Source: Candidatus Zhuqueibacterota bacterium
Lineage (GTDB): Bacteria > Zhuqueibacterota > QNDG01 > JABMRT01
Direction: 5' to 3'
Assembly (NCBI GenBank): GCA_013202295.1
Contig: JABMRT010000292.1
Coordinates: 12,486-76,485, forward strand
DNA length: 64,000 nt
In this document: positions 8,126 through 23,839 of the stretch, in pieces
Layout: the number at the start of each line of letters is the position of its first letter
Numbering within the stretch: position 1 is the stretch's first letter
Translations under genes and position numbers: made by a program
The notes under the pieces: model-generated
What the model was told of the DNA's origin: nothing
The model's input: the letters and a program-made list of their open reading frames with translations, nothing else
Databases searched by the model: none

Positions 8126-9127
8126 ATGAAAACCAAATTGTTCTTAACCTGTGCGCTCATCCTGATTGTGACCGTATCCGGACTCACGTTTGCTGGTGAC
8201 GACAAGCAGGGAGTTTATGAGTATGTCATCCTCTCTGCCGAAGGTGAGTTTGACGCCATCTCGGATTCTCTCGAGACTGCCGCCCTAAGCAAAGGCTGGG
8301 AGGTGTTGACAGTGCATGAATCCGGTGTACCCGAAGGATGTGAATTTCGGGCAGCTGTTCTTGTGTTATATGACTCGGAATATGGCGAACAAATCATGCA
8401 GGCCAATTCCGAAACCGGACCGTTTGCTGTTGTGGATCGTATAAGCCTGTTTCAGGATAAAAATGGAACCCATGTGGCGATTGTCAATCCGAACTCAATC
8501 AACCGCACCGTACTTATGGAAGATGACACCAATCATGATTGGACGGAAACACATCGTTTAAAGCTGCGTGATCTTATAACAGCATCTGTTCAGGGAGAGG
8601 TTTCAGAAAAACAATACGGGCAATTCCGCAACAGGGGATATATTGGACGTACTATGGGTGTGATGGCTGGTGGATCTTTTGATGGAAAGATTAAGGAGAA
8701 GTTGATCCTGAACAACGAGGGTTTTTCAGAGATTGTCCAGAAAGTTAAACTTGCATTGTCACAAACCGGACCGAATAAGGGCATGACCTTGGTATATACG
8801 CTCGAACTTGAGGATCACAACACTGTGGTTTTCGGCACAACTGGTACACCCATGGACAGCAGGTCGTATGAAATCGTCAAAGCCGGATCAGATAAATCCA
8901 GGAAGAAATTCGCATATCCCGGCCTTGCTTATGTGGGTGCCTACCCTATCGAAGTGGTCGTCAGTAAAGTGGACAATGTCATAACAGTGCGGCTTGTAGG
9001 CATTATGTACCGCATGAAAATGTACTTCGAAGATGCTGGTAAAATGGCGTTCATGAAGAATATGGGCATGCCTGGAGATATCGAAGGCGAGCTTGAAAAA
9101 CAGATAAAATCTGCATTCTCTGAATAA
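8126..9127 (+). CDS. Secreted hypothetical protein, possibly two DUF302-like domains
   Basis: Signal peptide after GGAGG; two halves each ending in a ...ISLFQDKNGTHVAIVNP / YPIEVVVSKVDNVITVRLV beta pattern. Confidence 0.5.
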   Translation: MKTKLFLTCALILIVTVSGLTFAGDDKQGVYEYVILSAEGEFDAISDSLETAALSKGWEVLTVHESGVPEGCEFRAAVLVLYDSEYGEQIMQANSETGPFAVVDRISLFQDKNGTHVAIVNPNSINRTVLMEDDTNHDWTETHRLKLRDLITASVQGEVSEKQYGQFRNRGYIGRTMGVMAGGSFDGKIKEKLILNNEGFSEIVQKVKLALSQTGPNKGMTLVYTLELEDHNTVVFGTTGTPMDSRSYEIVKAGSDKSRKKFAYPGLAYVGAYPIEVVVSKVDNVITVRLVGIMYRMKMYFEDAGKMAFMKNMGMPGDIEGELEKQIKSAFSE

Positions 9128-9186: not shown

Positions 9187-10529
9187 TCACCTCTAATTGA
9201 GACAATCGAATCCGGTGGAACCACATAGCTCATTCCTTGAATCCTTTTAATCAGAGTCCTACTCTTATCGGCGTGACGGACTCCCCTGTCTGGTGAGAGC
9301 GTGGTGATAACAGATTTGCCGATGATCTTCCGCCCTTCCTTACCCCAGAAACTTTTCGTCCGCAATCCCCAGGGATTGTGAAAAACCAGAGGACGATTTT
9401 GATCGTGGCCGATGTAAAGCATGATATGTCCCGGATACCACAGCAATGTCAGAAACGGTATCCCCTTTTCAAGAATGATATTCTCTTTATCCCGTATGGA
9501 CAATTCTGAAAGATTGATATAATTAAAACCGGCCTGAACCTGATGTGCCGAATGTCTCGGAAGCATGATCCCAAAAGGTGCGAACATATCCTTGATCGTA
9601 GCAGAACAATCCCTATTTTGAAACAGTCCGCCCCAGCCGTAAGACTCACCAATCAGGGCATCTATGATAGAAGCCAAATTGGAATTGGAAAGAACCAATG
9701 GTTTGCATGATGCGGAGGATTTGGGCAGCACAGCGATCATAGGCACTGCTCTCCGATCCGGGAGTGACACCGCGCAAAGAACATGGATGTTCAGGCTGTC
9801 CTCCCCCACTTTCGGAAATATTGATCCAAGCGGCGCGAGATAAAGAGTTCTTCCCTCTGTAGTATAAAGGGGGATTTCATCCCGTGTGACCACGATCAGG
9901 CTATCAGACTGCCATTCTATCATTAAGGATGAATCTACTTCCGCCAGATCCCGAGCGGGCAGCCACCCAGACGCAATATGGGATACCACATAAAACCAGG
10001 ATCGATCCAAAGAGGAATGTGTTAACAAAATCGGCGTGTTCGCCACGATACTGGAAACTTGCAGATAGTCAAAGGGATATCCTTCTCCCGGCAATTCGAA
10101 ATCACGGAATATCGGCTTGTTCGTGGGCAACGCGCGCAGATCGGAGTTGGCAGTGGTGATGCCGGACCAGCCCGCGTTTGGAAAACTGGAAGTGTCCGCA
10201 TTGATCGCTAGGGATGCAACCCATGTCGAATCACGCGGCAGCTTGTTCTCCCCCCAACCGGGTTTGGATTTATAATATTTGATAGAGTTTCTAATTGGCT
10301 TCAATGAAACGCTATCCGGTTCAAGATACCACGGCGCGAAGTACAGCAAATCATATTTCTGATCCATATGTTTTTGAAGCCCGGTAGAAATCAAGGGAAT
10401 TTCAGCCGTATCTGAATCGAGGTAGGCACGACCCTCTTGCGGCAGGGTGCGCACATCCTGAATCAGCAGTGGCCCCGGTGCGCAGCCAAGCAGAGACAAT
10501 AAAATTAATGGAACGAGAAGTTTCTTCAT
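9183..10529 (-). CDS. SH3-domain NlpC/P60 (C40) cell-wall peptidase lipoprotein
   Basis: Lipobox LLGC; YGWGG..RDCS catalytic Cys, GHIMLY His, FHN; start MKKLL at 10529. Confidence 0.88.
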   Translation of the reverse strand: MKKLLVPLILLSLLGCAPGPLLIQDVRTLPQEGRAYLDSDTAEIPLISTGLQKHMDQKYDLLYFAPWYLEPDSVSLKPIRNSIKYYKSKPGWGENKLPRDSTWVASLAINADTSSFPNAGWSGITTANSDLRALPTNKPIFRDFELPGEGYPFDYLQVSSIVANTPILLTHSSLDRSWFYVVSHIASGWLPARDLAEVDSSLMIEWQSDSLIVVTRDEIPLYTTEGRTLYLAPLGSIFPKVGEDSLNIHVLCAVSLPDRRAVPMIAVLPKSSASCKPLVLSNSNLASIIDALIGESYGWGGLFQNRDCSATIKDMFAPFGIMLPRHSAHQVQAGFNYINLSELSIRDKENIILEKGIPFLTLLWYPGHIMLYIGHDQNRPLVFHNPWGLRTKSFWGKEGRKIIGKSVITTLSPDRGVRHADKSRTLIKRIQGMSYVVPPDSIVSIRGE

Positions 10530-11082: not shown

Positions 11083-12084
11083 GTGCGCCGCAGCCTGCTA
11101 CTTGTTTTATTGATGAATCTCTCCTGGCTTTCCCTGTCCTGTAATTTGGATGGCTACAACGACCTCGGTGAACTCGTGAATCGATTTACTCAGCTTGGAT
11201 CGAATGCATCCACATATATGCGTACTTTTGTGATGGAATCGGGACCCATGGTAGAGTTGATGACATTCAGCGATCTGCGGGAACCGTACGGGAGTTGTGT
11301 TTCCATGCAGGTAACCGATGAAGGGAATAAAATAGAAGTTGTGTTGAAGCTGGGCACTTTTCAGATTTCGGATGGTCAGATTGAACTTGAGTATAGCCTG
11401 CGCTATTTAAACACATACGTATTTACATCCAGCCCATCAAGCATTTCAGGCGCTACGCAGGATGAACTCTCACCTGAGAAGCATGAGGAGGCTCTGTGGA
11501 ATCATAATAGAGCTGCCGGAATCATTCGGATGGATGGAAAGCTTTATAAAAAGGTCGACAGGATTTTTGAGAACATTCTCTCTCAGGAATCTTCAGACTG
11601 GCCTGATCAGTTCATGAAAATATTTCTTCTCTGTACCATGGCCGCGCATACCCGGATTGAGGGTTTCGGCGGAATCGGCATGCTGCAATACATCAATAAA
11701 ACCACTATTTTTAATGGACTTCTGTTTGGCGAGATGGTGTTTCGCGTTGAGGGATTAACCACACTCACCACCACATTCAATTATACAAATCACAGTGATA
11801 TCGCCTGCGTGGTTTTAAATGGAGATATCATCAATAAGTCAGATTTGAGCGGCACAGGCGAAATGGATGGCGGACTTGCCTTCACCATCGATTGTGGGGA
11901 GAACATTTGGGAGGGCAACGTGGATTACTCCACCATTCGCATCTCGGAAACACTCCCGAACGCGGGTGAATATCGTTTGACTTTCACTGGATCGGATTCG
12001 ACATATACTGCTCCCTACGATTACGGAAATCCAGATCATTTCGATTTGACGGATGTATTGGATCCAAATCCAAATAACTGGTAA
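11083..12084 (+). CDS. Hypothetical lipoprotein
   Basis: GTG start after GGAGG; lipobox LSLSC; 333-aa ORF with no family recognised. Confidence 0.7.
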   Translation: MRRSLLLVLLMNLSWLSLSCNLDGYNDLGELVNRFTQLGSNASTYMRTFVMESGPMVELMTFSDLREPYGSCVSMQVTDEGNKIEVVLKLGTFQISDGQIELEYSLRYLNTYVFTSSPSSISGATQDELSPEKHEEALWNHNRAAGIIRMDGKLYKKVDRIFENILSQESSDWPDQFMKIFLLCTMAAHTRIEGFGGIGMLQYINKTTIFNGLLFGEMVFRVEGLTTLTTTFNYTNHSDIACVVLNGDIINKSDLSGTGEMDGGLAFTIDCGENIWEGNVDYSTIRISETLPNAGEYRLTFTGSDSTYTAPYDYGNPDHFDLTDVLDPNPNNW

Positions 12085-12150: not shown

Positions 12151-13251
12151 ATGAAAAGACGACACTTTCTAAAAACCAGTGCTGCTTTAGGAGCCGTGAC
12201 CATGACAGGACTAAGCTTGAGCGAAATGGGATGCACCTCCAAAGCCAATATGAAATTCCCACGATATCGCGGATTCAATTTACTGGCCAAATTCAGCGGC
12301 CGTGGTGCAAGAAGAAAATTCAAGGAAGAGGATTTTGAAATCATGGCCGAATGGGGATTCGATTTCGCTCGTATCCCCATGTCGTACTGGAACTGGGCAA
12401 CTCCGGAAGATTGGTACACAATCAATGAGGAAATCCTTGAGGACATCGATGAAGTCATTGAACTGGGCAAGCAATACAACATCCACGTCAATTTGAACTT
12501 TCATCGTGTGCCAGGTTACTGCATCAACGGCCGCGATTTGGAACCGGTAGACCTATTTGACGATACACCCAAAAATATGCAGAAGGCCTTGGATGCAGTT
12601 GTGCATCACTGGAAAGTATTTGCCCAGCGATACAAAGGTATCCCCAGTACTCGTTTGAGCTTTGATTTGATTAACGAACCGCCATCCATGGAAACTGAGA
12701 CACGATACGTGGAGATTATCAAGGCACTGGTTGCTGGCATCCGTGCTGAAGATCCGGATCGATTGATCGTGGCTGACGGCAAAGATGTCGGTCGTACACC
12801 CGTCTATGGTGTGGCAAATCTCGGTCTCATACAAAGCACGCGCGGTTATGATCCCATGAGTGTCAGCCATTATACCGCCGGATGGGTACCCAAAGAGGCA
12901 TTCGAGACATTTAATGAACCCACCTGGCCGCTCAAAGGAGATGATGGTAAAGTATGGGATAAGACCGCACTCAAAGAAAAGCTGATTGATTTATGGAAAC
13001 CACTGACAGATCAGGGTGTGTCCGTGCATGTGGGTGAATGGGGATGTTATAACAAAACCCCACATGATGTCGCTTTAAGATGGATGCGCGATTTACTTTC
13101 ATTATGGAAAGAAGCTGGCTGGGGCCATGCCATGTGGAATCTGAAAGGATCCTTCGGCGTATTAAACAGCCAGCGAAGTGATGTAAAATACGAAAGCTAC
13201 AAGGGCCATCAACTCGATCGAAAGATGTTGGAACTACTGAAAGAGTTCTAA
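12151..13251 (+). CDS. Glycoside hydrolase family 5, Tat-exported
   Basis: MKRRHFLK Tat signal; RGFNL, LINEP (acid/base) and HVGEWG (nucleophile) motifs. Confidence 0.92.
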   Translation: MKRRHFLKTSAALGAVTMTGLSLSEMGCTSKANMKFPRYRGFNLLAKFSGRGARRKFKEEDFEIMAEWGFDFARIPMSYWNWATPEDWYTINEEILEDIDEVIELGKQYNIHVNLNFHRVPGYCINGRDLEPVDLFDDTPKNMQKALDAVVHHWKVFAQRYKGIPSTRLSFDLINEPPSMETETRYVEIIKALVAGIRAEDPDRLIVADGKDVGRTPVYGVANLGLIQSTRGYDPMSVSHYTAGWVPKEAFETFNEPTWPLKGDDGKVWDKTALKEKLIDLWKPLTDQGVSVHVGEWGCYNKTPHDVALRWMRDLLSLWKEAGWGHAMWNLKGSFGVLNSQRSDVKYESYKGHQLDRKMLELLKEF

Positions 13252-14467: not shown

Positions 14468-14586
14468 AAATGGGAACCTATAACGGCCAGGCTCTGAGGC
14501 GCGGCCAAATGATCGCCCAAAGATTCCTATCTTTGGGTGTAATAAGCTGGAGGATTCTATCCTCCCCAAAAAAATTCGATCAAATT

Positions 14587-15279
14587 TTAGAAAAACGTTT
14601 TAAATCCAAATACAAATCTTATTCTTGAAGGATATATCGGATCGTCATTGTTTTCTCCAAAAAATGAATCTTTTTCATCTGTATATCCCAAAGTGACACA
14701 CTCATTTTCTGTGAGCCAAAATTCAATATCATTACCATACCCATATACCATTCGTTCATCTGTAATATTATGATCATTATTTTTTGCCGGAATTGTATAC
14801 ATCGCTTTTAAATGCCAGGAAAAACTTATAAAGTTTAAAAGAACTGGCGAACCGAAGGCAATTTTCCCATAAACTCCATAACCGGATGATTTATAAAAAG
14901 TCAAATCATCTTTAAAAACAGTCTCATCATTAAACATTTGCACACCAGTACTTATTCCAAATCTATAATCTTTCCTTTTTCCAATATAATCTCTGGTTAA
15001 TGATGCCCATGGTTTTTTACTTGTTCTAAACATATAACCTATTTCAAAATTTAAAGTATAATGAGTGCCTGTTTTAGCTCCTAAAAATAAACCAGATCCC
15101 CAATTTAAAGCATCACCTGGTGCATCAGAATTATTATCAACTTGTTCAGTATAGATTTTATCCAACCTTGTTTCAAGTGAATCAATTTTCTGCTGTAGCA
15201 TTTCGTAATTATCTTCTGCATATAAATTAGATAGCCATACAATACTGAATAAAAATATGATTGTACTTTTCGTCTTCAT
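14587..15279 (-). CDS. AT-rich hypothetical exported protein (possible small beta-barrel), beginning right after the last attC
   Basis: Signal peptide, short coiled coil, aromatic-rich strands and terminal Phe; a spot count gave 25% GC. Confidence 0.7.
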   Translation of the reverse strand: MKTKSTIIFLFSIVWLSNLYAEDNYEMLQQKIDSLETRLDKIYTEQVDNNSDAPGDALNWGSGLFLGAKTGTHYTLNFEIGYMFRTSKKPWASLTRDYIGKRKDYRFGISTGVQMFNDETVFKDDLTFYKSSGYGVYGKIAFGSPVLLNFISFSWHLKAMYTIPAKNNDHNITDERMVYGYGNDIEFWLTENECVTLGYTDEKDSFFGENNDDPIYPSRIRFVFGFKTFF

Positions 15280-15305
15280 TTTTTCTCCCTTATTTTCGTT
15301 TTCAT

Positions 15306-15425
15306 GTATAACGTTTGTTTGACCGGTTGAAAAACAAATGAATATGCCCTTAAAGAAGTGTTTCCAATAACCTGTAATAGAAAAGAAGTAACGTTTTTCA
15401 ATCCGCGTTGAAACATAGGTTATAC
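15306..15425 (-). mobile_element. Integron attC site (attC-3)
   Basis: Minus strand: R'' GTATAAC-CTATG-TTTCAACGCGGATTGAAAAAC ... GTTTTTCAACCGGTCAAAC-AAAC-R' GTTATAC; 120 bp, downstream of a co-oriented gene. Confidence 0.8.
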
Positions 15426-15492
15426 AGTGCCGGCCAAATCCTGTTCATTAATGTCTTATACTATTTTTTTAATTAATTTGTCTACAATACTT

Positions 15493-16386
15493 CTAGTGCC
15501 CTGTAGGTCCATCAATACATATAATGACTTTTACAGGTAGATGGTCCGATCCCACAATATCTTCTTGTCCGGTAGAAGTCCATTGGTTCTCAACGCGACC
15601 GATGTCGTCAATTAATTCCACGCTTCCATCTGTGGGTATCCAAATAAAATCTACCCCTTCTCCATACTGTGCGTAACCTTTATCTTTAAATCTTTGAGCT
15701 TCATTACTATTTGCACTTGCATTAAAATCGCAGGTGAATATATGAGGATAAGCTTGTTCGTCATCTGCTATATTGAAAATTTCCGTAATCTCGTTATACC
15801 TGGTGGTAGTATTCTCATAATGAAGATGAAAATCATAAAGAGTTAATAATGTTCCTCCTCCAAGATCAACATCTATCCTTAAAAGTTCGTCATCTCCTGA
15901 GGGCATCTCACTTTCATCATAATAATGACTGTAGGTGATCGGGAACTTGCTAAACGCACCCAGCCAGTGCCATCTACCTTTGTTGGGACAGAAATAATAC
16001 ATTCCTAATCGCTCAGCTAATTCTGCCATGATTTCCGGACTATGATCATCTATGCCGAAACCAGAACCAGTATTTGGTCCATTAGAATTTTCCTGGAGAC
16101 AAATTACATCTGCGTCCAGCGAATTTAATACATTTTCCCAGAAATCATAAAATGCCAAGCCATTAGCTACTATGCTCATATCCGGCACCCAATCTTTTTC
16201 CATATACGGTCCACTGGCGCTCCCGGAGCCTGCCCCTCCATGCCCCAGCCAATGTTTAATATTATAGCTTACTACTTTGACTTCTGTACTCTCTTGACCA
16301 TTTACTGTAAATGGAAAGAGGGTAAAAAGTAATAACCCGGCTGATCCCAGAATTGTTGCCACCATTTTTTTTCTTTTTCTTATCAT
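15493..16386 (-). CDS. Endonuclease/exonuclease/phosphatase (EEP) family protein, cassette-borne
   Basis: SYNIK, LQE, FHLH, CDFN, VDFI and SDHLP motifs; N-terminal signal/TM; start MIRKRKK at 16386 after GAGAGG. Confidence 0.85.
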   Translation of the reverse strand: MIRKRKKMVATILGSAGLLLFTLFPFTVNGQESTEVKVVSYNIKHWLGHGGAGSGSASGPYMEKDWVPDMSIVANGLAFYDFWENVLNSLDADVICLQENSNGPNTGSGFGIDDHSPEIMAELAERLGMYYFCPNKGRWHWLGAFSKFPITYSHYYDESEMPSGDDELLRIDVDLGGGTLLTLYDFHLHYENTTTRYNEITEIFNIADDEQAYPHIFTCDFNASANSNEAQRFKDKGYAQYGEGVDFIWIPTDGSVELIDDIGRVENQWTSTGQEDIVGSDHLPVKVIICIDGPTGH

Positions 16387-16593
16387 TTTGACCTCTCTTT
16401 TCAAAACGCAATATCTCCATTGCCATCTCACGCGATTATGGTTACACTTAAATTTGACATCCACACAATTACAGATGCCACTATGGCATAGCAAGATATT
16501 CTATTCATAATTTTACTCTTATTATAATCTAAATTTATAAATGTCTACCAAGTCTTTTTTTCACAGGGATATATGAATAATATTCTTCCATTC

Positions 16594-16691
16594 CCATAAC
16601 GTCTGTTTCAGGGGATTTAAACGCTCGACAAAACATCAAAATGCGAAGAAAGTGGACGCGTTTAAATTCCGACTCCAACCGCTGGTTATAC
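16594..16691 (-). mobile_element. Integron attC site (attC-2)
   Basis: Minus strand: R'' GTATAAC-CAGCG-GTTGGAGTCGGAATTTAAACGC ... GCGTTTAAATCCCCTGAAAC-AGAC-R' GTTATGG; 98 bp. Confidence 0.85.
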
Positions 16692-16844
16692 GCGATGAAG
16701 CCAAAAAATTACACCATAAGCATGAACGTTGAGTATATGAAGCTTTGGGAATTTCAAAATACCCTACTTTCAAATCCCTATGTCCTTTATTTACATTTAC
16801 TTTCGATTCACCACGTATATGTGCTACATGATTGGAAATCTCTA

Positions 16845-19649
16845 TTATTTATTTTTCTCTCTGTTTTCTAAACGATCTTCATCCTGTTCCTTGCTTTCGC
16901 GAATCATATCCTCCATATTATCAATTTGGGGAGACTCTTTAATAGCTTTCCAATCAAATTTTTCATTAAAAGGGTCGAGTGCTTTTTGAGGATCGAATAT
17001 CCTGCTATCTACCGATAAAGCATCGTATGGTTTGTAGTCAGGATAAGTTGTAAAAAAGTCAGCCAAATCCGTAGCCCCGGCATCATATTGATTTAAATAT
17101 GGCAGGCCCAAAATATTCCAGAATGATTTAAACAAACTGCCAAAACTATAATGTACATGACTAACATAGTCTTTTTTTACCCAGGGAGAAACGAGCATAA
17201 GAACACTGCGATGAGCATCAATATGATCAACGCCGTTTTGTGCGTCATCTTCTGTAATAACGATCAACATATTCTTCCAATAAGGTGTTCGTGAGAGATA
17301 TTCTACAATACGACCGACAGCTAAATCATTATCTGCCATATAGCTTTCCCGGAAAGGATACCCGGCATCCGGACGATCGCCCGCTCCGTGGTCATTTGGA
17401 ATTATTGCTGTAATAAATTCCGGCATAGTATCCTTGCCCATAATCCATTTCTCATCAAATTCTTTTATAAACTGATCTATTCTAAATTGATCCGGAATTG
17501 CCATGTTATAAGTCGGGTACATTTTAGAGGTCCATTCATAAAGGGGCTGTGGCATTGGGTAATTGATATACTGCCTATTTCCGGAATATTTATATTCAGC
17601 TTTATAAAGTGCCGGTTCAAACATTATACTAAAACCAAAATTATAAAATTTCACTTTATTACGCTTTAAATGATCCCACATAGAACCTGCTTCATTATAA
17701 TCTTCCGGATAAATTGCTCCTGCTGATCCATTCATCGCAAAAACACCGGGTGCATTTGAGTTTTCCCGATAATTGCGGTTACCTCCATAACTAGCTGCGG
17801 TTGATGTCTCACACCACTCATTAGGGTATGTGTTTACCAACCAGCGGTGGCCATCAGCTGAAACATCGGAATCCACATAAAAATTATCTGAAATGGCAAA
17901 TTGGCTGGCTAGAGCCAAATGGTTAGGCATTACCGTTGAATTTGAAACTGAGTTCGTTTTATTTCGATTTGAAAATGTCGCTCTTTTACCATATCGCGCA
18001 AGTGCTGAGTCACCTTCGCCTTTTTTAATTTGCCCGAAAACTTCATCATAGGTTCTGTTTTCCTTCGAAATAAACACAATGTGACGTATTGGACTAACTT
18101 TTTCCCCGGGGAATAATGGAATGGGATTATTTTCCCTGTTTTTAAAAACCAGGTCATCGGCTTTAGTAAAGTTAAAGTTGTTCGAAATGACCTGTTTTGT
18201 CATTTCCTTTAATTGTTTATCACCAGGAATATCGACTACCTGAACGGTTCCTTTCATTAACGAACCGATGTAACTTCCTACCGATCCCTGGTCAAAAGTT
18301 GCTCCTCCATTAGGGCCGCTGCCATAACCCTTAGCGTTGGCAATGATTAATTTTTTTCCATCATTGCTCACTTTAACTTTTGACGGAAACCAGCCTGTTG
18401 GAATATGTCCCGAGACTTTTTGATCTGAAACATTAATAACAGCAACAGCATTTATTCCCGATTCAGCTACATACAATCGTTTTCGGTCGGGGCTTAAGGC
18501 TAAACCAAAAGGAATTACTCCACGAAACTGCCTTATTCGATCATCAGGTTTAAGGTAGATTGTATTGACCACTGTATCCTGTTCCATAGAAATAACCGAG
18601 ATATTATCATTGGTTCCATTGCTGACGAATACATATTTATTGGTTGCAACAATTGAGTTGGGGCTGGATCCTCCAACAGCCGGGATATCTTCGACTAATG
18701 CTCCAACTAGGTGCCCGGTTTTAATTTTGGCAGCAACTATTGGATTTATTGAATCCTCAAGATTAATAGCAAATACTGAAAACGCCTCAAGAGAATTTAG
18801 ATCACCCAGACCGGGAATTACTAATGTATCATTTTCTATCCCCTCTATCATCTCTTTTGAGCCATAGGCAAAAGCAGGATAATCAATTGGCTTTACCTTT
18901 GATTCATTCGCATTTCCATCTTTTATCAGTGCATACTCAAACATTCCCACGTTGGCTACATAAGCCATCTTTTCATCAGGAGATAGACAAATCCCAAATG
19001 GATATCGTCCTACAGGAACTGAGTGTTTAAGAGTTTTCGTTTCTGTATCCAGGACAACCATTCTAAAACCTATCTGATCCACAGCATAGAGCGTTTTTCC
19101 ATCCTTCGTTAATTTAAGATCGCCTATATAGCCGTGAGTATAATCCACTTTTTCAGAAATAAAAGAGCAATCTATAGTTCCCTTTTTTCCTCCGGAATTG
19201 ACATCAAACAGGTATATCTTGTTCTCTTGCCCTCCAGCAACATAAATTGTTTGATTGTCAGGAGATATTGCCAACCCCATAAACACCGAAGCCAAAACAC
19301 CTTTGTCAGTAGATGGACCTGGAGGTATCTGTTGTACTTCAGGATTTTGCGATAAAATATTGCGAACAATCGTAATTGACAATGGACTGGTTCCTGAATT
19401 GGCTGTAACCGCAGTATTACCATCCGGACTTAGTGCTAATCCGTATGGATGTGGTGCCGTTACTAAACTTTTCCCTGCTGGAGTAATGTATCTTCCATTA
19501 GGAATAACAGTTTTTCCGGTTTTATCAATTTTTGTGAATTTATTTCCAGCAGGTGCTGACGCTATCCAGAGTGTTTTATCCTTTGAATTATTTTGTAGGC
19601 TGCAACCAGAAAAAGGTAGCATTATTAAAAACAGAATTATAGTTTTCAT
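16845..19649 (-). CDS. YncE-like beta-propeller / alkaline-phosphatase-superfamily phosphoesterase fusion lipoprotein, cassette-borne
   Basis: Lipobox FSGC after MKTII (19649); YVTN-like propeller repeats (P.GLALSPDG..LYV); KENRTYD..FG and SADGHRW phosphoesterase motifs. Confidence 0.88.
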   Translation of the reverse strand: MKTIILFLIMLPFSGCSLQNNSKDKTLWIASAPAGNKFTKIDKTGKTVIPNGRYITPAGKSLVTAPHPYGLALSPDGNTAVTANSGTSPLSITIVRNILSQNPEVQQIPPGPSTDKGVLASVFMGLAISPDNQTIYVAGGQENKIYLFDVNSGGKKGTIDCSFISEKVDYTHGYIGDLKLTKDGKTLYAVDQIGFRMVVLDTETKTLKHSVPVGRYPFGICLSPDEKMAYVANVGMFEYALIKDGNANESKVKPIDYPAFAYGSKEMIEGIENDTLVIPGLGDLNSLEAFSVFAINLEDSINPIVAAKIKTGHLVGALVEDIPAVGGSSPNSIVATNKYVFVSNGTNDNISVISMEQDTVVNTIYLKPDDRIRQFRGVIPFGLALSPDRKRLYVAESGINAVAVINVSDQKVSGHIPTGWFPSKVKVSNDGKKLIIANAKGYGSGPNGGATFDQGSVGSYIGSLMKGTVQVVDIPGDKQLKEMTKQVISNNFNFTKADDLVFKNRENNPIPLFPGEKVSPIRHIVFISKENRTYDEVFGQIKKGEGDSALARYGKRATFSNRNKTNSVSNSTVMPNHLALASQFAISDNFYVDSDVSADGHRWLVNTYPNEWCETSTAASYGGNRNYRENSNAPGVFAMNGSAGAIYPEDYNEAGSMWDHLKRNKVKFYNFGFSIMFEPALYKAEYKYSGNRQYINYPMPQPLYEWTSKMYPTYNMAIPDQFRIDQFIKEFDEKWIMGKDTMPEFITAIIPNDHGAGDRPDAGYPFRESYMADNDLAVGRIVEYLSRTPYWKNMLIVITEDDAQNGVDHIDAHRSVLMLVSPWVKKDYVSHVHYSFGSLFKSFWNILGLPYLNQYDAGATDLADFFTTYPDYKPYDALSVDSRIFDPQKALDPFNEKFDWKAIKESPQIDNMEDMIRESKEQDEDRLENREKNK

Positions 19650-19835
19650 ATGTTTTATTAAAATCATCGTTTTCACGTTTGAAATCCAATGTTTGTATGT
19701 ATTCATTGTGTTTATCCTCTCAATTTAGCAATATTAACACAATCGTTAATATTGTTCTTTTACAATATATATTAATACTATTCAAAAAAACCAGCAAGAT
19801 GATTCTTAATTCTAATAAAAGATTTTTGATACAGC

Positions 19836-19934
19836 GTATAACATCTGTTTCAGCGGTCACGAGCCAAGAGCAAGTATCCCGCAAGTTGAGTTTAGAATTC
19901 CATGTTAGCGATCCGCTGCAAACACGGGTTATAA
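19836..19934 (-). mobile_element. Integron attC site (attC-1)
   Basis: Minus strand: R'' TTATAAC-CCGTG-TTTGCAGCGGATCGC ... GTGACCGCTGAAAC-AGAT-R' GTTATAC; 99 bp. Confidence 0.85.
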
Positions 19935-20277
19935 GCCCACCTAAAGTGAATGACGTCTCTTTCGTTTCAAAATAAAAACAATAGCTCAAAATCTCAATAT
20001 TATTTCTGCTGAATTAAATTCTTTTTAGGTCCGGGACAAATACAAAAACTCAGCTCTTTCGGTTTCAATTCAATAGCCAGACTGATTGAACCCTTTGCCC
20101 AAAGTACCTTTCACCTTCAACCTGAACAGGGAGTGATTCAGGGGTATGGGTTTATGACCTCTTCCCCCAATCTTTGAGGTTCAGGGGATGAGGCAGTTTA
20201 TTGATTTTGCCTTCGACCTTTCAACCTTTTCAAAGAACTCGGATTTGCAGAGCGTATTGCTGTATCAAATTATCTAA

Positions 20278-20296
20278 CTTATAACCTAAGTTTATC
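20278..20296 (-). mobile_element. Array-start recombination core (attI-like or relic)
   Basis: Minus strand GATAAA-CTTAG-GTTATAAG. The GTTATAAG matches the attC-1 R'' (CTTATAAC), and the TAAA-N5-GTT spacing resembles attI1. Confidence 0.45.
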
Positions 20297-20322
20297 GACC
20301 AATAATTATCATCCCGAGGTGA

Positions 20323-20460
20323 TCAGCTAAAACCATCAATAATTTCCAAATAGTAACGTTTCCCATTTGAACCCTTATATGGAAATAATGCAGGCACATA
20401 TTGTCGGTATCTCATATAGGGTTCTCCAAATTGTTCAATTAACTCTTTTTCCTCAGGGTT
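20323..20460 (-). pseudogene. C-terminal fragment of an isoprenylcysteine-carboxylmethyltransferase (ICMT/PEMT)-family gene
   Basis: Reads PEEKELIEQFGEPYMRYRQYVPALFPYKG...FS* with no start; abuts the stop of the upstream gene. Confidence 0.65.
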
Positions 20461-20481
20461 GCTGTTTAATTTTGCACTCTT

Positions 20482-21279
20482 TTAAAATTGCCGGGCCCAT
20501 TGAAAATCGAACAGAGGCAGCAACAAATGCCATTGGGTACCAAAAGGATATTCCGCGTAGACAAGTTTGTAGCCCAGACACATTTGAAAGCGTGTACTTT
20601 TTCGCCATATAATCAATCCCTTATGTTCAAACGCGAAATTTTCCTCTGCTTTCGGCACCAGAAAAATATCAGAATCCACAACATAATGCCAGCGCCTAAC
20701 AATCAATCCTTGAAGGTCAATCCCCATCCTAAAATTGTAGGTATTATAAAACACTGCCAGTCTCGGGAATATGAGAGGCAGATCGATAGTGGTTCGCTCA
20801 TCAAGGTCTTCAGATGTATAAGCGAATGTCAGTCCTGCTTTTGCTGTCACAAGTAATCGCGGGTCGAACCGTTTTGATACCAGAATTTCATTGTGGAAAG
20901 CTACCATATGGGGCATGGTGAATTCAGGTGAAATCAGCCCGCCAATGCCTTTTTTGGAAACCGTACGCAGTAATGGGGTCGGATAATAAAAACTGTGCCT
21001 TGTCGCCCAGTCATATCCTGCGATTGCAGAGTGCTTCCATTTAACACTCAGATTGGGCATCAGGATATTCGGCAGCACATAAGTGGACAATTCCAGAGAT
21101 TCAGAAAGACCATAAGCAGCGGGTTGAAATATGCCAAATTCCAGACGATCTTTCGGAAGCAAATAGGCTGTCCCTGATGACCAAAGAGAAACATCGCCTT
21201 CATTTATTTCTCCTGCCATAATGCAAGGTATCCCCCACATGAACAGGACGAGTCCGATCAGGATTTTAGAGATCTTCAT
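20482..21279 (-). CDS. Hypothetical exported/outer-membrane protein
   Basis: Signal peptide MKISK..., terminal Phe; ATGA overlap with the upstream EEP gene. Confidence 0.7.
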   Translation of the reverse strand: MKISKILIGLVLFMWGIPCIMAGEINEGDVSLWSSGTAYLLPKDRLEFGIFQPAAYGLSESLELSTYVLPNILMPNLSVKWKHSAIAGYDWATRHSFYYPTPLLRTVSKKGIGGLISPEFTMPHMVAFHNEILVSKRFDPRLLVTAKAGLTFAYTSEDLDERTTIDLPLIFPRLAVFYNTYNFRMGIDLQGLIVRRWHYVVDSDIFLVPKAEENFAFEHKGLIIWRKSTRFQMCLGYKLVYAEYPFGTQWHLLLPLFDFQWARQF

Positions 21280-22367
21280 TCTGGCACCCCCCATCTGACA
21301 CTAATTGGTGTATGGTCGGACCAATCAGTCGCTTCCTGATGTGTGGAGTCGGAACCCGCAATCCACTGGTAATTGGTAAACAAATAATCCAATTTCTTTT
21401 GCCAGAAACCATCCCAGTGGGATGTATTCGTAAAATAGCGCTCTTCGTTTGTCAGATATTCATCCAGAGGAACGGCAGATTGATACGTATCGTATAGATC
21501 CTGAAGCCAGGTTACTTCCTTGGTGAAATCGCAGCCTTCCATTTCGTTAACATCTTCACCGAAACAACGATCCTCAAGACAGAAATATGTTTTAGTCGCT
21601 CCGGGCGGTAGAGTATTCAAATCGCCACCGGCAACAAAGTAGGCACCCGCTTCGTGTAGTTCATCGAGCTCTGCCTTGAATATATCGATATGTTTCATTT
21701 TAGTGTCGTCCTTGGCAAAGGCAGAGGTATGGACATTTACGGCATAAAAATTGGGAACATTGGGGAGGTCAATTTTTACTTTCAGAATATTCCGTCGCAA
21801 ATAGAAATACTTGGTAAGTTCATCCTGATCGCCGCGCTGAGGCAGAGGGATACGGATGGCTTCAAGAATGGGCCACCGAGATAACACCGCATTGCCCATG
21901 TTCATACGTCCCAGTCCGTCGCTGGGGATGAACTGAACTTTCCAGACTGAAGCAAAAGCTCCGTAATTAAAATAGGTATGGTCCAGCAGCCACTGCATTT
22001 GATCGATATATGCCGACCGTTTAGATTCAATATCGATCTCGTTGATGATCAGGACGTCGGGTTGAATTTCATTGATTTTGTTGGCTATACCTTGCAGATG
22101 GGTGAACACTTCATCTTTTGTGAGAATCACACGGTCGCCGCAGGAATCCCCGAACCAGGGGATACGACCAGCGCCAAAACGGATGTTCCAGGTCATCACG
22201 GTGATAGTTTCAACCGTGCTGGGTGGTGCCGATTTCTGTTCGGCTGTATAAATGACCGCATCACCTATTTCCTCAAATTGCTCAACCCAGGGTTCACATC
22301 GCAGCCAGGTGATGGACACGACCAGCCATACAATGATCATGAATCGAGGATTCTTAAAAGAAGTCAT
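21276..22367 (-). CDS. Endonuclease/exonuclease/phosphatase family protein
   Basis: TWNIRF, INEID, NVHT, GGDLN, KLDYLF and SDHTP motifs. Confidence 0.9.
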   Translation of the reverse strand: MTSFKNPRFMIIVWLVVSITWLRCEPWVEQFEEIGDAVIYTAEQKSAPPSTVETITVMTWNIRFGAGRIPWFGDSCGDRVILTKDEVFTHLQGIANKINEIQPDVLIINEIDIESKRSAYIDQMQWLLDHTYFNYGAFASVWKVQFIPSDGLGRMNMGNAVLSRWPILEAIRIPLPQRGDQDELTKYFYLRRNILKVKIDLPNVPNFYAVNVHTSAFAKDDTKMKHIDIFKAELDELHEAGAYFVAGGDLNTLPPGATKTYFCLEDRCFGEDVNEMEGCDFTKEVTWLQDLYDTYQSAVPLDEYLTNEERYFTNTSHWDGFWQKKLDYLFTNYQWIAGSDSTHQEATDWSDHTPISVRWGVPE

Positions 22368-22674: not shown

Positions 22675-22802
22675 CTACTCCGCATACGAAGAAACAATAC
22701 CGCCCGTGAGACGCAGCAATTCTGTATGGGCCTCGATCAATCGGTAAATAGATTCCAGCCGTCCGAGAGCTGCGTTCAAGTAAATTAACTGGACATCACG
22801 GA
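22675..22802 (-). repeat. Orphan copy of the last 128 bp of the tolC-family gene (direct repeat of 23980-24107)
   Basis: Encodes RDVQLIYLNAALGRLESIYRLIEAHTELLRLTGGIVSSYAE*. It has 12 mismatches to the tolC copy, 11 of them synonymous; 22760-22802 is identical. Confidence 0.97.
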
Positions 22803-23839
22803 TTGACAATCACTTTGGTCCGCTCCTCACCCCCCATCACCTTCAACGCTTGATGAATTTCGCTTAGCGGGAAGCGGTGAGAGATGATCTTCTCTGTATC
22901 CACCAGCCCGGAGTCCATCAGGCGGATGGCACGGGACATTGCCAGCGGCGTGGTGCCGAAACTGGCATCCATGCGCCCTTCCAAGAAATGTGTGAGACCG
23001 CCGTCCAGCTCAAACGTCTCGTGGGTAGTGATGCCAAAGACGTTCCACCGGGTTCCCCGCCGCCGCAGGCTTGACATCAACTTGACAGCCTCGATCGGCC
23101 CCGCCGCTTCGATGATCAGATCAGGGCCGCCAGGGATGATCTCATAGACGCGCGATTTGGCATCTTCGCCCACGGGATCGATCGCGTGCGTCGCACCCAG
23201 CGCCAGAGCCTGCTGCCTGGCATAAGGGCTGGGATCTATGGCGATCATTTGCGCCGCCCCGGCGGCTTTTGCCACCATCTGGCATAACAATCCCATGCTG
23301 CCCGCCCCGATGATGACCACGTCGTCCCCGACACGCATCTCGCTATACTGGACCACACCCTTCCACGCACCAGAGAGTGGCTCGGTGAGAGCCGCGGCAT
23401 CGAATGACAGGCCGGCGGGCTTGAGAAAGAGACTGTTCTCGGTGGTGCACATGTACTCGGCGAACGCCCCAGGCCAGACGTCGTCCTGGCCATCCCCACC
23501 GGTAACGAAACCGTGCATGCAATAGTGGGTGTTGCTGGCACGGCAGTGCTCACAGACCCCGCAATAGCCCATCGGCTGGCAGATAATCTCGTCCCCTTCC
23601 TTGAAGTGAATAACACCCGGCCCCACCTCAGCGATGATGCCACTTGGCTCGTGGCCGACGATGGCAGGGAAGGTGACGTTCGTACGGACTCCTTTGACCG
23701 CCTTGTAGTCGGTCCCGCAGATGCCGCATGATTTTACACGCACCACTACGGTACCGGGTGCTGCGGGCTTGGGACGGGGCACTTGTTCCAATCGCAGGTC
23801 ATTGAAATCGTGTAAGACTGCAGCAAGCATCGTTTCCAT
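22796..23839 (-). CDS. Zinc-dependent (MDR) sugar-alcohol/threonine-type dehydrogenase, GC-rich
   Basis: CGICGTD, GHE, structural-Zn CGVCEHC..C and GAGSMG motifs. Confidence 0.93.
   Translation of the reverse strand: METMLAAVLHDFNDLRLEQVPRPKPAAPGTVVVRVKSCGICGTDYKAVKGVRTNVTFPAIVGHEPSGIIAEVGPGVIHFKEGDEIICQPMGYCGVCEHCRASNTHYCMHGFVTGGDGQDDVWPGAFAEYMCTTENSLFLKPAGLSFDAAALTEPLSGAWKGVVQYSEMRVGDDVVIIGAGSMGLLCQMVAKAAGAAQMIAIDPSPYARQQALALGATHAIDPVGEDAKSRVYEIIPGGPDLIIEAAGPIEAVKLMSSLRRRGTRWNVFGITTHETFELDGGLTHFLEGRMDASFGTTPLAMSRAIRLMDSGLVDTEKIISHRFPLSEIHQALKVMGGEERTKVIVNP

Follow-up and report, generated by a model that had tools for sequence, protein, structure and literature searches.

Cassette arrays that have no integrase of their own, the clusters of attC sites without an integron integrase (CALINs), number in the thousands, and the attC sites of integrons vary in their central part and measure about 57-141 nt in total, some being longer. 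By definition, a CALIN contains at least two attCs that share a strand, are separated by less than 4 kb and have no integron integrase in their neighbourhood, and 95% of CALINs are free of a pseudogene of the integrase gene, intI, in their vicinity (Cury 2016). Here, we analysed a 64-kb stretch of contig JABMRT010000292.1 (64,000 nucleotides, hereafter the window), in which the segment 14587-20481 (about 6 kb) can with considerable confidence be regarded as a partly decayed chromosomal CALIN of an uncultured freshwater bacterium resembling the FCB (Fibrobacteres-Chlorobi-Bacteroidetes) group. Similarly to the CALINs already described (Cury 2016; Neron et al. 2022), it comprises three co-oriented attCs less than 4 kb apart in a small array devoid of both intI and its pseudogene; it differs from them by residing in an FCB-like chromosome rather than in that of a gamma-proteobacterium and by having an unusually long cassette of 3.2 kb, a chimeric attC and a terminal gene without attC. 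The locus adds a documented CALIN in this kind of host, the element itself being of a known kind, and the array proved to be recognisable by eye in unannotated sequence. Integrons have already been reported in Chlorobi, Ignavibacteriae, Salinibacter and Bacteroidota, and the statement of an earlier note on this DNA, that they are little described in the lineage, adds little in view of the reports for the Bacteroidetes/Chlorobi group.

All three sites are read from the minus strand and lie exactly where the earlier note placed them, attC1 at 15306-15425, attC2 at 16594-16691 and attC3 at 19836-19934, with lengths of 120, 98 and 99 nt, respectively. The spacings of 1169 and 3145 bp fall within the 4-kb distance of a CALIN and, together with the common strand and the lack of intI in 64 kb, uphold the interpretation proposed in that note. 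In the minus-strand reading every site starts with [G/T]TATAAC-C and ends with AAACA-R-A-Y-GTTAT-R, so that an outer repeat R''/R' with AAC...GTT is present at three sites out of three ([G/T]TATAAC...GTTAT[A/G]), and each site, besides its ATAAC...GTTAT ends, has another inverted repeat and a spacer of 5 nt. For attC1, the R'' box is GTATAAC (15419-15425) and the R' box is GTTATAC (15306-15312), the crossover falling between 15311 and 15312. The interiors are mutually unrelated upon alignment, and the divergence of the three attCs ascribed to them before is thus borne out. The two-ended pattern TATAACCN{55,85}CTGAAACAGAYGTTAT matches attC2 and attC3 at an expectation of 0.00 in the window; TATAACCNNNGTTT has 3 matches against 0.04 expected, the third being an orphan half-site at 20280-20293, and AAACNNNNGTTATA has 5 matches against 0.10 expected. 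As single-stranded DNA, attC1 and attC3 form an R-box stem of 6-8 bp, a 3x3 unpaired spacer, an L-box stem and a variable top, and the attC1 fold reaches -15.0 kcal/mol (z -2.8) with both R and L boxes closed. Bulged bases appear solely on the 3' arm of the plus strand, three in attC1, one in attC3 and likewise in the repaired version of attC2 considered below; this asymmetry identifies plus as the bottom strand and minus as the top strand, in agreement with the strand of the genes. Thus, the canonical geometry attributed to all three sites, as well as the extrahelical bases sought by folding the bottom strands, are confirmed for attC1 and attC3 and not for attC2. Two of the attCs sit just 3' of minus-strand open reading frames (ORFs), while attC3 follows an ORF-less stretch.

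For an independent assessment of the sites, class 1 integrons were located in plasmids via IntI1, and known attCs were cut from their annotated cassette arrays. Model R1 is a covariance model built from ten aligned class 1 attCs, in which the pairing of the R and L boxes and the bulge of L'' are encoded, while model R2 combines 16 class 1 sites with one site from a Bacteroidetes metagenome-assembled genome (MAG), the sites of the window being excluded. Upon an unfiltered run of R1 over the whole window, the best match is attC3 (19836-19934, minus, full length, 21.1 bits, E 0.002), with the bulged base aligned to the canonical L'' position; R2 likewise places this site at the top of the window (23.6 bits, E 6e-4). 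Held-out real attCs used for calibration, estX (23.4 bits) and arr-3 (21.3 bits), score at the same level, and attC3 is both the top match of the two class-1-derived models and the best formed of the three sites. R1 misaligned attC1. The covariance check suggested in the earlier note, performed here with proxy models, accordingly supports attC3 well and attC1 weakly and finds no match for attC2. Class 1 attCs (aadA1, aacA4, blaVIM-2, arr-3, estX) share with the sites of the window the plan R''-5 nt-L''(bulge)...L'-5/6 nt-R', and attC3 aligns over the whole model with its bulge in the same place. The differences concern the R boxes ([G/T]TATAAC / GTTAT[A/G] in the window versus GTCTAAC / GTTAGAT), the AT-richness and greater length (98-120 nt) of the window sites and the bulged base of the bottom strand, which is C in attC3 and G in class 1. 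It is exceedingly improbable that the sites are ordinary intergenic palindromes such as terminators, repetitive extragenic palindromic (REP)-like repeats or ends of miniature inverted-repeat transposable elements (MITEs): hairpins located 3' of genes, the neighbourhood of a host REP-like hairpin at 14510-14566 and the lack of an Rfam match are what one would expect of them, but here conservation is limited to the ends with unrelated interiors, bulges are confined to one arm, the class 1 model ranks attC3 first at the level of real attCs, and a gene and its site travel together, the breaks falling at G|TT. On these grounds, the REP, MITE and terminator reading was rejected. The Rfam search at gathering thresholds gave no match in the window, Rfam having no attC family.

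The strongest line of evidence for the CALIN comes from the movement of one cassette between genomic contexts. Cassette B (15312-16599, minus, 1288 bp) consists of attC1 and a gene at 15493-16386 (minus) for a secreted protein of 297 amino acids (aa) from the endonuclease/exonuclease/phosphatase (EEP) family (Pfam PF03372, E 1.5e-6), which carries the signal peptide MIRKRKKMVATILGSAGLLLFTLFPFTVNGQ and has just 2 homologs among 5.8e9 proteins. Positions 1293-2588 of locus L006 correspond to 16600..15309 of the window with 98.4% identity over 1296 bp, with no other match between them and with unrelated flanks; attC1 is 98% conserved there, and homology stops at ...AAACGTTA|. Locus L007 matches 16601..15756 over its positions 49-893 at 94%, and in cold-seep contigs of run X5 the homology likewise breaks off at 16600 and at 15309. 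In all these cases, homology with cassette B begins at GTTATGGG and ends at ...AAACGTTA. The upstream junction |GTTATGGGAATG is preceded by ...CTGAAACAGAC in the window, ...CATACCGGT in L006 and ...CATTGCAGC in L007, while ...CAAACAAACGTTA| is common to the window and L006 on the downstream side, after which they continue as TACATG... and ATGCGT..., respectively. The breaks coincide to the base with the crossover point of the R' boxes (G|TT), the position predicted for recombination by the integron integrase IntI. Such breakpoints within unrelated flanks define 15312-16599 as a discrete cassette occurring in at least four contexts, namely the window and at least three metagenome contigs sharing 94-98% identity with it; together these contexts span freshwater, sediment and cold-seep data. 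The finding may be viewed as a natural experiment, with one cassette in at least four contexts and base-exact G|TT junctions.

Several observations weigh against the CALIN or limit it. Both canonical halves of attC2 are present in the sequence, but they stay unpaired (z = -0.4), and neither R1 nor R2 recovers this site in the window. Full-length recovery of attC1 by R2 (15306-15425, minus) is weak, with 10.2 bits, E 3.8 and rank 3 in 64 kb, and both models are proxies rather than the attC model of IntegronFinder itself. A strict attC pattern that has 2 matches in the window gave 0 matches in the metagenome collection, and a looser one gave 44 single matches, about the number expected by chance, none of which folds as an attC. 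Between the stop codon of the terminal 230-aa gene and the host-like intergenic repeat no attC was found. Neither excision joints nor circles were seen in assembled contigs, which drop rare variants. Finally, no integron integrase is known for this genome, where the search covered 64 kb of the 87-kb contig. This partial coverage is what would favour a complete integron with intI just beyond the window; such an arrangement is very improbable, since the side where attI and intI should be located (higher coordinates) is occupied by ordinary chromosomal genes over 44 kb, among which no tyrosine recombinase occurs, and anything farther exceeds the 4-10 kb used to define an integron (Cury 2016).

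The absence of intI from the window, proposed earlier, stands. A tblastn search with IntI1, the query sequence of which was verified at 100% against thousands of plasmids, gave a best E of 1.5 in the window, with no signal of an intI pseudogene, and nothing in 64 related loci; among the large ORFs of the window, Pfam revealed no tyrosine recombinase or Phage_integrase domain. The set of intI, attI and cassette promoter Pc that accompanies the first cassette of a complete integron is missing, and the upstream side is represented instead by host-like EEP, alcohol dehydrogenase and RND efflux genes. In the minus-strand direction, the layout may be read as an ORF-less remnant followed by attC3, cassette A with attC2, cassette B with attC1 and the 230-aa gene without attC. 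From this architecture and from the G|TT breakpoints, we infer assembly by an integron integrase, which would have recombined the folded bottom-strand (plus) attC hairpins at AA|C (G|TT of the top strand) of the R' box. With no integrase in cis, the cassettes would move only if IntI were supplied in trans. Judged from sequence, attC1 and attC3 are probably competent for recombination; cassette B, lying between the canonical R' of attC2 and the intact attC1, is the unit captured in different contexts, while the unpaired arms of attC2 probably lock cassettes A and B together as a single block of lower mobility. Expression would rely on promoters inside the cassettes or on read-through. The known integron mechanism is left unchanged by these findings.

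The failure of attC2 to fold has a plausible origin in its mosaic composition. Contigs in runs X1, X4 and X5 share with the window the right arm and loop of attC2 (16613-16680), and on their left side they read ...ATAAC + 6 nt + CGGTTGAGC. The left arm bearing CGGTTGAGC pairs with the L'' of the window site (GACTCCAACCG), and a hybrid of that left arm with the right arm of the window folds at -22.2 kcal/mol with R and L boxes closed and with bulges on the 3' arm, whereas attC2 of the window reaches just -11.7 kcal/mol and stays open. The 13 nt at 16600-16612 in turn resemble the spacer and L' of attC3. By its sequence, attC2 is a chimera of two attC families, with the right arm and loop at 16613-16691 belonging to what may be called the attC2 family and the spacer and L' (16600-16612) being attC3-family-like, the break lying at the inner border of L' rather than at G|TT. 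To our knowledge, there is no integrase route that gives a break at this point; our guess is that the chimera arose by deletion or by a template switch between two neighbouring hairpins. As a recombination site, attC2 is probably crippled. A contig of run X4 is 99% identical to the window over 16613-16728 (part of the 3' untranslated region of cassette A plus attC2) and then continues differently. Five other contigs of run X1 match the left half of attC3 at 85-92% and differ beyond the R' box, their depth being 5.5-7.6 versus 8.1 for the locus.

Presence of attC families with several related copies beside different cassettes in one sample is also a trait of sedentary chromosomal integrons, exemplified by the Vibrio superintegron with its Vibrio cholerae repeats (VCR), as are a cargo of mostly unknown function and bottom strands apparently located on the leading-strand template. 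They differ from the present locus, which has no integrase, attI or Pc and combines three different attC families instead of the homogeneous sedentary array. As for strand location, GC skew of the plus strand is negative across 1-64000, and most genes lie on the minus strand; judging from this skew, the attC bottom strands (plus) appear to be on the leading-strand template. The same orientation has been reported for sedentary chromosomal integrons.

Cassette A (16600-19841, minus, 3242 bp), which extends between the crossover points in R' of attC3 and R' of attC2, is composed of attC2 and a gene for a beta-propeller/phosphoesterase lipoprotein. Its 953-aa ORF (16845-19706, minus) combines a Lactonase/Arylesterase/SGL beta-propeller with PF04185 Phosphoesterase according to Pfam, and NCBIfam recognises an acid phosphatase and YVTN repeats. 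Translation probably begins at the internal ATG at 19649, since a lipobox is present there and homologs are 934 aa long; the protein of 934 aa would then carry the lipoprotein signal MKTIILFLIMLPFSGC, and the first 19 codons of the ORF (19649-19706) are likely untranslated. Many Bacteroidota MAGs encode "bifunctional YncE family/alkaline phosphatase family" proteins with 80-90% identity to this protein, while homology to Bacteroidota genomes at the level of DNA (about 88%) spans only 16807-19675, that is, the ORF and about 30-40 nt on each side with the attCs excluded. No attC was found beside the 934-aa homologs in Bacteroidales loci L008, L010 and L011, and a scan for TAAC...GTTA hairpins gave no further site either in the window or in Bacteroidales loci. 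The gene family is mostly chromosomal and is packaged here as a 3.2-kb cassette. A Bacteroidota-type phosphatase with known non-cassette relatives is carried on this cassette, one attC of the array has swapped an arm with another family, and the locus offers concrete substrates to study the spread, decay and possibly genesis of cassettes outside Proteobacteria.

These features could be united in one scenario, in which the same genome harbours a larger active integron, attC arms were exchanged in a way not described before and cassette A was captured recently. The larger integron is suggested by copies of the attC2 and attC3 families at host-like depth in the same sample, the arm exchange by the attC2 hybrid, whose break is at the inner border of L' instead of G|TT, and the recent capture by cassette A, which shares 88% nucleotide identity with Bacteroidota genes outside cassettes, the homology stopping some 30-40 nt beyond the ORF. 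Taken jointly, this is an unlikely combination; if true, it would mean an integron in an FCB-type lineage where none has been described and would make cassette genesis testable.

Some observations were made around homologs of the cassette A gene. In the Bacteroidetes MAG GCA_022564965.1 (loci L012/L077), two attC matches are situated 3-4 kb downstream of the 934-aa homolog, at 12174-12238 and 13230-13301 of L012 (16174-16238 and 17230-17301 of L077), after co-oriented ORFs of 146 and 293 aa. They score 30 and 14 bits with R1 and 59 and 14.5 bits with R2, and this locus is a Bacteroidota CALIN with no intI within 10 kb. The same L012 contains a 75-nt repeat at about 9990-10067 and about 11526-11605, upstream of one ORF and downstream of another in an array-like gene series, which reads ...TTAGGATTAGAGGA.AGTC.TATAATCCTGTTAAGTAT.AGTTAGGC and may be a second attC type unseen by the models. 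In L008, about 170 bp (around 8830-9005) are inserted just 3' of the stop codon of the 934-aa gene and are absent from L011 (3295); they may represent a small mobile insertion.

Both ends of the array look incomplete. At the lower coordinates, the cassette-like unit 14587-15311 (minus) encodes an exported 230-aa protein with the C-terminus ...KTFF, which has no match in Pfam or NCBIfam. Its gene starts 30 nt past the attC1 crossover, and immediately past its stop codon comes host-like sequence, which includes a hairpin with further copies in the sample. A cold-seep homolog of the gene (87%) diverges 4 nt beyond the stop. At the opposite end, the 547-bp AT-rich stretch 19935-20481, to which no strand is assigned (GC 0.377 versus 0.47 in the host), contains no ORF of at least 60 aa on the array strand and presumably corresponds to a cassette body, decayed or empty, together with the upstream edge of the island. 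It includes the orphan half-site TATAACCTAAGTTT (20280-20293), which can be read as R''-L'' on the plus strand or L'-R' on the minus strand and agrees with the R''-L'' of attC1 at 13 of 14 positions; no partner arm for it was found in the window. A fourth full attC upstream of attC3 was considered and dropped, as only a half-site is present. The lack of attC after the 230-aa gene and the ORF-less stretch with its orphan half-site imply that the array is eroded at both ends. The hairpin element 14510-14566 (CCCAAAGATTCCTATCTTTGGG...), located between the 230-aa gene and an aminotransferase gene, matches two other contigs of the same sample and is probably a host REP-like repeat.

Such decay bears on how the CALIN came into being. 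One possibility, to which we give close to an even chance, is that it is a remnant of a resident integron left after the loss of intI and attI and erosion of the array. This is consistent with the orphan half-site, the chimeric attC2, the terminal gene without attC and the ORF-less stretch, with the view of CALINs as degraded integrons (Cury 2016; Neron 2022) and with copies of the attC2 and attC3 families at host-like depth (5.5-7.6 versus about 8) in the same sample; against it stand the lack of an intI pseudogene signal anywhere in the window, the host-like composition of the genes directly upstream and the absence of an array at this locus in the closest relative. Another course of events, a substantial possibility falling below even, is the insertion of a few cassettes by a trans-acting integrase at a non-att genomic site (attC x attG), as proposed for single attC sites lacking integron integrases (SALINs) and small CALINs. 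Small size of the array, the lack of an insertion sequence or intI pseudogene nearby and absence from the relative fit this route, and insertions of this kind are efficient and were proposed as a source of small CALINs (Loot et al., bioRxiv 10.1101/2022.09.11.507474). The locus shares with the products described in that work the position of cassettes off the integron platform, in an ordinary chromosome. Yet the route predicts a complete attC downstream and a bare G|TT upstream, whereas here the downstream attC is missing and an extra half-site is present upstream, so that a later deletion would have to be assumed.

The cargo, described earlier as exported phosphoester-hydrolysing enzymes, conforms to this description at the level of domains, with signal peptides or a lipobox visible. 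Judged from domains only, the exported phosphoesterases together with two possible outer-membrane proteins might serve extracellular scavenging of phosphate esters. Orphan and unannotated cargo is typical of cassettes and was counted in favour of the CALIN.

The surroundings of the island are those of an ordinary chromosome: the window encodes RlmL, acyl-ACP thioesterase, cytochrome c biogenesis proteins, carboxyltransferase, biotin ligase and an RND efflux operon, as well as parts of type IX secretion (PorV, Por_Secre_tail, Porph_ging), and this gene content points to the FCB group. The island, found in a freshwater metagenome, is located between the RND efflux operon and a class-V aminotransferase gene, and in two freshwater runs the locus is arranged as in the window. 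An assembly artefact was ruled out, as the same arrangement is seen in the JGI contig and in two independent Logan assemblies. No tRNA was detected by a scan of the window, so that the island is not a tRNA-targeted one. Between 14.6 and 20.5 kb GC drops to 0.30-0.40, from a level of about 0.47. Host genes have 0.47 +/- 0.02, and the values are 0.30 for the 230-aa gene, 0.40 for the 297-aa EEP gene and 0.385 for the 953-aa gene, so that the region is indeed AT-rich relative to the host, although less so than the 25-33% claimed earlier. GC at third codon positions (GC3) follows the same trend, being 0.50 +/- 0.04 for host genes, 0.20 for the 230-aa gene, the most deviant in the window, 0.33 for the EEP gene and 0.31 for the 953-aa gene, while the next upstream genes are host-like (0.44 for a 265-aa gene and 0.50 for EEP363).

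Locus L002, the closest relative found (its aminotransferase is 70% identical), keeps the flanks of the island, namely RND/OEP ... aminotransferase ... NlpC/P60, RlmL and AKR/Fer4, and between OEP and the aminotransferase it carries genes for a metallo-beta-lactamase-fold protein, rubrerythrin and DUF2520, the island being absent. These other genes in the interval indicate that gene order is not fixed across relatives; with cassette B occurring in other contexts as well, the fixed order and sites that the earlier note regarded as incompatible with an array are not observed. A scan of the genome collection with the flanking aminotransferase gave best matches of 50-52% (Aminicenantes, Acidobacteriota) and no closer locus. 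Directly upstream of the island, 20482-22367 is an operon of host composition coding for an EEP-family protein of 363 aa and an exported 265-aa protein that ends with ...ARQF and looks like an outer-membrane barrel; this pair of an enzyme and a putative barrel mirrors the island cargo. Farther upstream, a Zn-dependent alcohol dehydrogenase gene (22796-23839) has GC of 0.60 and GC3 of 0.72 versus 0.47 and 0.50 in the host and has no adjoining attC. Foreign as well but rich in GC, this gene shares the interval between OEP and the aminotransferase with the island, and the interval resembles a general hot spot of gene acquisition.

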